From a virus: a stretch of 64,000 nucleotides of DNA. A program made the translations under genes and the position numbers. Shown here in pieces: positions 13,212 through 13,877 of the stretch. The notes below the pieces were generated by a model. The model was not told the origin of the DNA. It ran no database searches and was given only the letters and a program-made list of their open reading frames with translations. The stretch is from IMG/VR virus record IMGVR_UViG_3300045988_106278, positions 1-64,000 of that record; one strand, written 5' to 3'. Positions within the stretch are counted from its first letter, which is position 1. Every line of letters begins with the position of its first letter.

Positions 13212-13877
13212 CGCTTAGTGGTGAAACTGGGATACACGAGGGACTTTTGGAACACCAGTAATGGTGAATTTGAGTGCTCTATTAGAAATAATAGAAGTAG
13301 AATCTCCCTAATTAAACAAGTTAATTACTAATTGTAAAAAGGTTAGCATCTGTGTAAGAAGCAGAGTAATGATTATAGAAGCAGTATTCAGAAATCTAAT
13401 TAACTTGCGACAGAAGCCTCACTTATGGTGACATAGGTTTTGGTGGTGACGAGCTAAATTGTGATAGAACGCTAATCTATCTTAAATGTAAATTGGAGTG
13501 TTACAGCATAAATGTGTAGAGACTATAGAGGAGATACCTAAGTTAATTAAAAGGAATGGTTTAGACTTCATCCTTAGTAATAAGGTTATAATAGTAATGC
13601 ATTATGTAAAAAAGGAGACGCTCATTGAGAGAGGTAAAACCTAATTCCTTACTTCGAAGTTAATTGATAAGGTAATAAAATAGTCCAGACTACAATAACT
13701 TAAATATGGCGGAATTGGTATACGGCAGCAGATTGACGGAAGCGCCTCTAAAGTCGTCATTAAATATCTCTTAAGGGTTCGAATCCCTTTATTTAAGTTA
13801 GCTTGTATAAAAGCAAGTGTAGTAGGAAAATCCCTTGACCAGGAATGGTCTTACGGGTTCGAATCCCGTCTAAGCGA
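13212..13877 (+). tRNA. tRNA-Leu (anticodon TAA) interrupted by a ~580-nt group I-type intron between U34 and A35
   Basis: 5' exon 13212-13246: acceptor CGCTTAG, D arm GTG-AAACTGGGATA-CAC, anticodon stem AGGGA, loop CTT. 3' exon 13827-13877: AAAA, TCCCT, variable hairpin TGACCAGGAATGGTCTT, T arm ACGGG-TTCGAAT-CCCGT, acceptor CTAAGCG + A. The exon ends in U and the intron ends in G, as in classic tRNA-Leu(UAA) group I introns. Confidence 0.55.
13247..13826 (+). other. Putative group I intron in the tRNA-Leu(UAA) anticodon loop (ORF-less, ~580 nt)
   Basis: No ORF of 60 aa or more. It is GC-richer than its surroundings. It holds several hairpins, including a tRNA-like segment at 13700-13797 with a perfect AAGGG-TTCGAAT-CCCTT hairpin. 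The conserved P/Q/R/S core was not verified by eye. Confidence 0.45.

Follow-up and report, generated by a model that had tools for sequence, protein, structure and literature searches.

A phage tRNA-Leu(UAA) gene split by a probable group I intron that carries a nested tRNA-like element

The window analysed in this study is a stretch of 64,000 nucleotides (nt), positions 1 to 64,000 of the IMG/VR virus record IMGVR_UViG_3300045988_106278, in which the two halves of a tRNA-Leu(UAA) gene are separated by an insert of 580 nt. We conclude with high confidence that the insert is a group I intron of the classic tRNA-Leu(UAA) IC3 lineage, that it lacks an open reading frame (ORF), and that it resides in a working phage tRNA-Leu(UAA) gene. 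The group I intron at U34/A35 had been proposed in a first-pass annotation made from the sequence alone, and it is now supported by a helix model running from P1 to P9, by covariation among relatives of the insert, and by the excision in silico of a homologous intron from a protein-coding gene. The coordinates of all features are collected in Table 1.

The spacing between the tRNA halves is exactly 580 nt, which confirms the first-pass coordinates to the base. Exon 1 (CGCTTAGTGGTGAAACTGGGATACACGAGGGACTT) is laid out as CGCTTAG-TG-GTG..CAC-G-AGGGA-CTT. Exon 2 (AAAATCCCTTGACCAGGAATGGTCTTACGGGTTCGAATCCCGTCTAAGCGA) has no encoded CCA and is laid out as AAAA-TCCCT followed by the variable-arm hairpin GACCAGGAATGGTC, the T arm CGGGTTCGAATCCCG, the acceptor strand TCTAAGCG and the discriminator A. 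When the exons are joined, ARAGORN calls an 86-nt tRNA-Leu(taa) with the complete class II cloverleaf that had been predicted; the acceptor stem of 7 base pairs (bp) and the T and anticodon stems of 5 bp each are perfect, the D stem has 3 bp, the variable arm is long, and the discriminator is A73. The anticodon stem (AGGGA/TCCCT) is the same as that of E. coli tRNA-Leu(UAA), as the annotation had stated. When introns were permitted, ARAGORN reported a single tRNA at 13212-13878 with an intron of 580 nt. The program places its own splice 1 nt upstream, which would give a tRNA-Phe(GAA); this candidate was rejected because the intronless alleles read CUUAAAA, the long variable arm is unfit for a tRNA-Phe and the U·G pair is located at U34. 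The tRNA-Leu was not detected in the window by the default ARAGORN and Rfam tRNA scans, and no second tRNA-Leu was called in the 64 kilobases (kb).

The position of the junction is fixed by two intronless genes, the annotated tRNA-Leu of the crAss-like phage cr272_1, with which the spliced tRNA-Leu aligns, and a tRNA-Leu(UAA) called by ARAGORN in the IMG/VR contig L024. Both read ...GAGGGACTTAAAATCCCTTGACCAG... across the junction, and the intronless tRNA-Leu(UAA) genes of related phages are collinear with the joined exons over it (...GAGGGACTT|AAAATCCCTTGACCAG...). A chance origin of the two halves is disfavoured because the joined exons match the intronless alleles straight over the junction. 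These alleles also bear out the break between U34 and A35, and the exon-final U and insert-final G that the annotation had pointed to are both present. Additionally, the insert proved to be free of coding potential, as had been claimed: no homing endonuclease ORF was found in the intron, the longest ORFs being 42, 48 and 39 amino acids (aa), and no stop-free run in the insert exceeds 74 codons when TAG, TGA or TAA is recoded.

The identity of the insert was examined in an alignment (A1) of 28 distinct family members with 9 core helices, 46 pairs and 1,261 pair cells. Standard pairs occupy 92.5% of the core pair cells, compared to 31-49% when the partners are slid by 1-3 columns. Compensatory changes were found at 20 of the 46 core pairs (both sides changed), and the observed covariation score was reached by none of 500 shuffles. 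In P3, 98.8% of the cells are paired and 4 of the 6 pairs show compensatory changes. A U-A pair of P9 is replaced by C-G in 18 relatives, a G-C pair of P9b is replaced by A-U in 8, and the A·A mismatch in P4 becomes A-U in the relative L016. The sequence of P6 differs among the relatives while its complementarity is kept (GAGUU/AACUC, UCAAUAAC/GUUAUUGA and UGAGGA/UCCUCA). P1 covaries with the host exon, being ACUU/GAGU in tRNA-Leu and CUCU/GGAG in the suppressor tRNA(CUA) of the sibling IMGVR_UViG_3300045988_105372 (L104, ~666-960), a gene into which a ~222-nt member of the intron family is inserted at 35/36; the window has a suppressor-type tRNA(CUA) of its own at 4102-4173 on the minus strand, and this gene is intronless. 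P10 can be formed by UUU at 13269-13271 and the three A residues that open exon 2, and P8 carries a tetraloop-receptor-like motif (CCUAAG...UAAGG). The first-pass annotation had made its case depend on a P3-P7 core, and the model contains one within a full P1-P9 core with covariation.

The insert can also be connected to known group I introns through its relatives. Two of its segments, GUGUAGAGACUAUAGAGGAGAUACCUAAG and AAAAUAGUCCAGACUAC, are similar to the J6/7-P7-P3'-P8 and J8/7-P7 strings of IC3 introns. The relative L108 scores 50.5 bits with the Rfam group I intron model RF00028 (gathering score 50), and the core strings GUAGAGACUAUA and AAAUAGUCC of the window are identical in L108. The J6/7-P7 string of L108 aligns to the RF00028 consensus AGACUAAA and its J8/7-P7 string to the consensus GAUAUAGUC / AUAUAGUC; L108 was used for the Rfam alignment only, since inspection by eye gave no clear exon structure for its host tRNA. 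In the DNA primase gene of the crAss-like phage cr116_1 (MT774389.1), the in silico excision of the homologous 563-nt intron (L003:2498-3060; ...CUU| ...G|AAAA) precisely joins two annotated "primase" coding sequence fragments and restores one ORF of 343 aa. The primase insertion site reads ACUU|AAAAU, as in tRNA-Leu.

Four add-ons set the window intron apart from its minimal relatives (L114 at 230 nt, L091 at 250 nt and Lak at 340-348 nt), namely the hairpin in the P1 loop, the 89-nt P3.1, the ~85-nt distal module of P8 and the cargo in P9a. The P1-loop hairpin P1a is absent from the Lak-phage and primase copies, P3.1 is absent or different in the short relatives, and the distal P8 module is common to the window intron and the primase intron L012. 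Searches for further copies of the intron within the window by motif gave chance matches only.

The distribution of the family was determined by BLAST of the insert against GenBank phages and then by exact-motif scans that returned 14 and 88 IMG/VR loci. In the BLAST search the insert was ~84% identical to the Lak-B and Lak-C megaphages and ~77% identical to the split DNA primase gene of crAss-like cr116_1 and IAS virus. The P7 motif AAATAGTCCAGACYACAA is present at 88 IMG/VR loci and in 99 GTDB species genomes, mostly Bacteroidales. In IMG/VR, 37 loci (33 distinct introns, 230-781 nt) are situated at 34/35 of diverse tRNA-Leu(UAA) genes, and others are in primase genes (L003, L012, L013, L019, L132) or other tRNAs. 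The Bacteroidales among the GTDB carriers are from Prevotellaceae, Cryptobacteroides, Paludibacteraceae and Rikenellaceae. Of the 100 GTDB matches, two of which share a locus, at least 62 represent complete tRNA-Leu(UAA) genes whose introns measure 210-756 nt, and one copy lies on the 3.3-megabase Bacteroidales chromosome OZ007033.1. Phage contamination may account for some contigs of the metagenome-assembled genomes, and host DNA for some IMG/VR contigs; carriage by the hosts is secure because copies sit on large chromosomal contigs. The likely hosts of the phages carry the same element, since the P7 motif occurs in at least 62 Bacteroidales tRNA-Leu(UAA) matches. Because the family is common to Bacteroidales, phage tRNAs and primase genes, intron traffic between host and phage and between RNA genes and protein-coding genes is indicated.

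The tRNA-Leu(UAA) genes of Lak-B1 (L001:1153-1895, MK250020.1) and Lak-C1 (L004) have two inserts. In Lak-B1 an insert of 309 nt (L001:1173-1481) follows U20 in the D loop and scores 40.5 bits with RF00028 (E=9e-9). The second is an anticodon-loop intron of 348 nt, and removal of both inserts results in a tRNA that ARAGORN calls tRNA-Leu(taa). The Lak tRNA-Leu(UAA) thus appears to carry two group I introns. Relatives of the D-loop intron were found only in Lak-type contigs. In its default mode ARAGORN found no tRNA in the Lak-B1 and Lak-C1 loci.

The first-pass annotation overlooked a tRNA-like element that lies inside the intron at 13700-13797. This element scores 29.1 bits with the Rfam tRNA model RF00005 (gathering score 29), and it is not called by ARAGORN unless a poor model is forced. 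Its D loop is tRNA-Leu-like, its T arm reads AAGGG-UUCGAAU-CCCUU, and in place of the anticodon arm there is a 5-6-bp stem (UGACGG/UCGUCR) with a loop of 14-16 nt. The conserved body of the element defines a family of 58 IMG/VR loci that is supported by covariation and undescribed: 7 of 7 acceptor pairs and 4 of 5 T-stem pairs changed on both sides, with 99.6% of the cells paired, and in the third arm (UGACGG/UCGUCR) one pair covaries. The D region UGGCGGAAUUGGUAUACGGC resembles the D arm of tRNA-Leu and is invariant, with G10 facing G25; no covariation was seen for a D stem or for a long-range GGCG/CGCC pairing in the body. A brute-force search for a canonical anticodon arm finds a 7-nt loop (CUAAAGU or CUGAAGU) only if the 8-9 nt GAAGCGCC(U) are removed. 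To our knowledge no bacterial mechanism removes such a segment, and for this reason the element is named tRNA-like and not tRNA. Among GenBank phages the family was found only in cr60_1, where it is unannotated, and a further relative is present at L005:1494-1596.

Stand-alone copies of the tRNA-like gene lie in the tRNA arrays of crAss-like phages, and in L024, L067 and L070 the gene is directly downstream of tRNA-Leu(UAA). Intact copies have a class II-type variable arm, which the window copy has lost through a 7-nt deletion (GAGGATT) relative to L017 and L009. Deletions were found in 4 of 9 distinct nested copies and in 0 of 19 stand-alone copies (one-sided Fisher p=0.006), so the cargo seems to be under relaxed constraint, and the nested element is most likely a decaying passenger. 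The nested arrangement looks like the result of recombination of a neighbouring tRNA-like gene into P9a, because the stand-alone copies sit just downstream of tRNA-Leu(UAA). The exchange may have been helped by the similarity of the P9a stem to the acceptor stem of the element and its flanks. The P9a stem (AACUUAA/UUAAGUU) is conserved among relatives and the modules in its loop are unrelated. At least three other unrelated modules of 60-150 nt (for example AAAAAGAACAAAAGCGCCTGAATAGTTCAAGATGTGGCGCC...) were observed in the P9a loop of relatives (L007, L016, L070, L111 and L128; L078 and L116; L010 and L013). Additionally, in L066, L035 and L060 the tRNA-like gene is followed by a P9b remnant fused to the final acceptor bases of tRNA-Leu (..GTTAGTTTGTCTGAGCTACA), and these arrangements look like deletion derivatives of the nested form.

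Several observations weigh against a functional group I intron in the window. The RF00028 scan, which the first-pass annotation had proposed as a check, gave no match in the window at the gathering score (50 bits) or at E<=10. This silence was not taken to mean that an intron is absent, because the model also misses the 250-nt relative L091 and 13 related loci. P7 is invariant in the sample of 28 relatives and hence neutral on structure; this invariance is uninformative because the sample was gathered with P7-region motifs. P1 has only 4 bp and an extra hairpin in its loop, an A·A mismatch interrupts P4 at its centre, P6 is closed by a helix of only 2 bp, and the receptor in P8 reads UAAGG where most relatives have the canonical UAUGG. 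The ~300 nt of peripheral inserts could slow folding or require a chaperone. In L091, L137 and Lak, the most distant of the relatives, P4 has poor support, and because it is not convincingly paired there it is claimed for the closer family of the window only. Splicing itself we infer from the sequence. Finally, the sister phage MT835539.1 has a different, intronless tRNA-Leu(UAA) (L002:1564-1648) in the slot that is syntenic with 13212-13877. The intron is therefore dispensable, and because the tRNA-Leu sequence of MT835539.1 differs, the whole tRNA cassette has been exchanged and the case is not one of simple intron gain or loss.

Such weak points would also be expected if the two halves were a dead tRNA gene whose intron, or the relic of one, cannot splice, with the phage relying on the host tRNA-Leu(UAA). 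The silent RF00028 scan, the indirect case for splicing, the weak P1, P4 and P6 and the intronless gene of the sister phage would all be accounted for, and the 7-nt deletion in the nested element is a sign of some local decay. We nevertheless regard a dead gene as improbable. All of the exon helices are intact and perfectly paired, the exons are identical over the junction to functional-looking intronless alleles, and the core helices are intact and near-identical to those of more than 20 relatives that keep their pairing by compensatory changes, while decay is limited to the peripheral cargo. Less credible still is the removal of the insert by another route, such as group II splicing, a bulge-helix-bulge endonuclease or a phage enzyme, or the joining in trans of a split tRNA. 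Further tRNAs of the window have oversized anticodon loops, for the removal of which no bacterial mechanism is known, and the introns in Lak tRNAs have been called "enigmatic" and are unclassified by Rfam (PMC6784885), which leaves some room for such a route. However, the group I architecture is complete in the insert and shows covariation, the U·G pair and the terminal G are in place, and relatives that score with RF00028 are homologous to it; neither group II domains nor a bulge-helix-bulge motif were seen in it, and Rfam gave no group II match.

The preferred reading, a group I intron with a passenger in P9a, was also weighed against the view that the tRNA-like RNA is a real product. In this case RNase P and RNase Z would cut the RNA from P9a after or instead of splicing, and each transcript would give two tRNA-shaped RNAs. 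The strong covariation of the acceptor and T stems in the family, its existence elsewhere as a stand-alone gene in tRNA arrays and the differing modules that mark P9a as a cargo site are consistent with a product, and Devoto et al. 2019 described a Lak tRNA intron that possibly encodes a tRNA (PMC6784885). We consider a product unlikely given the excess of deletions in nested over stand-alone copies, the missing variable arm of the window copy and the lack of a canonical anticodon loop in the element. Moreover, Lak, L091 and L137 have a plain P9a hairpin, so the intron does not need the cargo. We are similarly doubtful of a wider proposal in which P9a is a cargo bay for RNA genes that replaces the homing endonuclease, the captured tRNA-like gene is released after splicing by RNase P and RNase Z, and the family retargets among Leu-UAA, Sup-CUA and primase through its 4-nt guide. 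If it were true, one phage transcript would give rise to tRNA-Leu and to a second tRNA-shaped RNA with an oversized "anticodon" loop, and the released RNA could be a decoy for host defences that target tRNAs or an unusual decoder in a phage that carries suppressor tRNAs.

In the established group I pathway, guanosine attacks the 5' splice site, the terminal G of the intron then occupies the same site and the exons are ligated. Catalysis in the window intron, its timing and any need for a protein helper are read across from this pathway. The conserved upstream element would drive transcription of the unit, and the splice sites would be held by the exon anticodon stem (AGGGA/UCCCU) together with the guide sequence. 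P1 (ACUU/GAGU) would set the U34·G wobble at the 5' splice site, and P10 would form between UUU and the A residues of exon 2. The core would fold from the P3-P7 pseudoknot and P4-P6, with P1a, P3.1, the distal part of P8 and P9a as peripheral add-ons. P2 probably docks through its GAAA loop into P8, at the receptor-like motif; the loop and the CCUAAG/UAAGG motif suggest an L2-P8 contact, presumably of the type known from Azoarcus. External guanosine bound in P7 would attack after U34, G13826 would then take the place of the guanosine, and the 3' OH of U34 would attack after G13826. Ligation would then yield the 86-nt tRNA from exons kept in place by P1, P10 and the anticodon stem. The ligated junction would read GGGACUU-AAAAUCCC and the spliced RNA CGCTTAG...GAGGGACTTAAAATCCCTTGACC (CGCTTAG...GAGGGACTT|AAAATCCCTTGACCAGGAATGGTCTTACGGG), and the mature tRNA-Leu would decode UUA and UUG in a genome of ~30% GC. 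For the Anabaena intron, dependence on the exon anticodon stem is attributed to Zaug et al. 1993, as cited in PMC3984707.

Table 1. Features of the split tRNA-Leu(UAA) gene, its intron and its flanks (window coordinates)
Feature	Position	Strand	Remarks
Conserved 25-mer TTGGCAACTAGCAGATAATTAGTTG	13181-13205	+	6 nt before exon 1; putative promoter
tRNA-Leu(UAA) exon 1	13212-13246	+	Acceptor 5' strand, D arm, AGGGA, loop C32 U33 U34
Group I intron (probable)	13247-13826	+	580 nt, IC3-like, no ORF; helix model, covariation on 28 relatives
P1	13243-13246 / 13272-13275	+	Exon ACUU with guide GAGU; U34·G13272 at 5' splice site
Internal guide sequence	13269-13275	+	GAGU (13272-13275) for P1; UUU (13269-13271) for P10
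P1a	13253-13266 (13253-56/13263-66)	+	Hairpin CACC/GGUG in P1 loop; model
P2	13279-13294	+	Hairpin, GAAA tetraloop; 5/6 pairs changed on both sides
P3	13302-13307 / 13530-13535	+	AUCUCC/GGAGAU; pseudoknot with P7
P3.1	13318-13406	+	Peripheral hairpin, 89 nt, closing stem 10 bp; inserted in P4 5' strand
P4	13408-13412 / 13447-13451	+	CGACA/UGACG, one A·A mismatch
P5	13416-13418 / 13442-13444	+	GCC/GGU
P5a	13422-13437	+	CUUAUG/CAUAGG, GUGA tetraloop; 5/6 pairs covary
P6 domain	13460-13508	+	2-bp closing helix; hairpins P6a 13463-13481 and P6b 13487-13505
J6/7, P7 5' strand, J7/3, P3 3' strand	13516-13535	+	J6/7 GUAGA; P7 5' strand GACUAU 13521-13526; invariant in 28/28 relatives
P7	13521-13526 / 13680-13685	+	GACUAU/AUAGUC
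P8 arm	13536-13673	+	Closing helix ACCU/AGGU (13536-13539/13670-13673), P8a, P8b, ~85-nt distal module
J8/7 and P7 3' strand	13674-13685	+	P7 3' strand AUAGUC (13680-13685)
P9	13689-13693 / 13819-13823 (span 13689-13823)	+	ACUAC/GUAGU; closes P9a and P9b
P9a	13697-13706 / 13790-13799	+	Branch within P9
Nested tRNA-like element	13700-13797	+	Acceptor stem = intron helix P9a
P9b	13802-13817	+	Branch within P9
Terminal G (omega-G)	13826	+	Kept in all 28 aligned relatives
tRNA-Leu(UAA) exon 2	13827-13877	+	A35 A36 A37 A38, UCCCU, long variable arm, T arm, acceptor 3' strand, discriminator A
Terminator-like hairpin CTCATACT...AGTATGAG then TTTTT	13958-13990	+	80 nt 3' of exon 2; putative function

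The flanks of the gene contain candidate signals for transcription. The exact 25-mer occurs twice in the window, before exon 1 and at 10770-10794 before a tRNA-Arg, where none is expected by chance. It also precedes tRNA-Leu in the relatives L024 and L008, and from its recurrence it is probably a promoter of this phage group. A terminator consensus scan gave no match for the hairpin at 13958-13990 because its stem is AT-rich. The upstream 25-mer together with the downstream hairpin and its five T residues suggests a self-contained transcription unit.

The window itself is phage DNA. It has ~30% GC, encodes helicases, an exonuclease and NrdD, and is 94% identical to the uncultured faecal phage records MT835539 and MT835492. 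Its nearest relatives in IMG/VR are ~92-190 kb; this size range and the intron density would fit the Zeta group of crAss-like phages (PMC7886860). Other tRNA genes of the window are also irregular. ARAGORN calls "tRNA-Stop (tta)" at 10886-10967 and 11396-11480, which score 46.6 and 53.2 bits with the Rfam tRNA model, the first of them requiring an 11-nt intron. By eye an alternative CCUC/GAGG or UCUC/GAGA stem with a loop of 16-20 nt can be drawn for the two, and they may be short "enigmatic" insertions like those in Lak tRNAs. At 14025-14097 ARAGORN gives a tRNA whose type is left undetermined and whose "anticodon" has 2 bases (ta), indicative of a shortened anticodon loop; the homologue in the sibling L009 has another sequence in that loop. 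A tRNA at 11588-11657 scores 51.7 bits with Rfam and is not listed by ARAGORN.

Group I introns at position 34/35 of tRNA-Leu(UAA) are the textbook case in bacteria and plastids. The classic intron of Anabaena is in the same gene and at the same U34/A35 site, and it shares with the window intron the U·G pair, the terminal G, exons held by the anticodon stem and the lack of an ORF. The core strings are presumably collinear (window GUAGAGACUAU...GGAGAU-ACCUAAG...AAAUAGUCC; Anabaena GCAGAGACUCGACGGGAGCUACCCUAACG...GAGAGUCC). The window intron differs in being phage-borne, too divergent or expanded for RF00028, and 580 nt rather than ~250 nt long, because it has four peripheral inserts (P1a, P3.1, distal P8 and the P9a cargo). 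We also take it to resemble the IC3 intron of Azoarcus pre-tRNA-Ile in the GAAA loop of P2, the 11-nt-receptor type of P8 (CCUAAG/UAUGG), the GNRA loop of the P5 extension and the J6/7-P7 string GUAGAGACUA. The Azoarcus intron presumably differs in its host tRNA and site and in its minimal length of ~205 nt, and the window receptor reads UAAGG.

A recent survey identified 333 tRNA group I introns in 4,934 complete bacterial genomes, documented group I introns at 34/35 of tRNA-Leu in taxa that include Bacteroidota, and found HNH endonuclease genes in the long Bacteroidota tRNA-Leu(UAA) introns (mSystems 2026, PMC13011429). The Bacteroidota introns belong by sequence to the same family as the window intron; they are mostly 210-300 nt or ~680-756 nt, whereas the window copy is ORF-less and has RNA modules. 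The bacterial survey reports tRNA group I introns only in the anticodon loop (PMC13011429). Yutin et al. 2021 described a high density of group I introns in crAss-like protein-coding genes, among them the primase gene; these introns were found via endonuclease domains, and tRNA hosts are not mentioned (PMC7886860). The crAss-like primase introns are of the same RNA family and have the ACUU|AAAAU target and the P3.1 and distal P8 modules in common with the window intron, which differs from the crAss-like protein-gene introns in its tRNA host and lack of an ORF.

Devoto et al. 2019 presented the introns of Lak tRNAs, which were termed "enigmatic" and left unclassified, as the first known from phage tRNAs; these introns were detected with the eukaryotic mode of tRNAscan, in tRNA-Tyr and tRNA-Thr among others (PMC6784885). 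Lak-B and Lak-C carry the intron family of the window in tRNA-Leu(UAA), and the Lak tRNA-Leu(UAA) with its two inserts lies outside the published Lak-B count of one intron, in tRNA-Tyr (PMC6784885). The class of the window intron is identified as group I, while the published Lak introns are unclassified by Rfam, and these "enigmatic" introns may partly be of the same group I kind. Because default ARAGORN and Rfam miss such genes, too few tRNAs are counted in gut phages, with Lak megaphages and large crAss-like phages among those affected.

According to a 2014 review, all phage group I introns are in protein-coding genes (PMC3984707), and the literature searched, coverage of which was incomplete, yielded no description of a phage tRNA with a group I intron. 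The remark in the first-pass annotation that such a gene would be unusual in a phage therefore holds for the literature and fails for the data, in which dozens of gut-phage contigs carry the intron. The window intron is a known kind of element in a type of genome where the literature lacks a record of it, though it is common in sequence data, and contrary to the statement in the 2014 review, phage tRNA genes do carry the classic tRNA-Leu(UAA) intron. The core itself is ordinary; what adds to the interest of the system is that the intron carries a tRNA-like cargo, that the family switches host genes and that standard annotation tools fail on it, and both the cargo-bearing P9a and the undescribed tRNA-like family offer starting points for new RNA biology.

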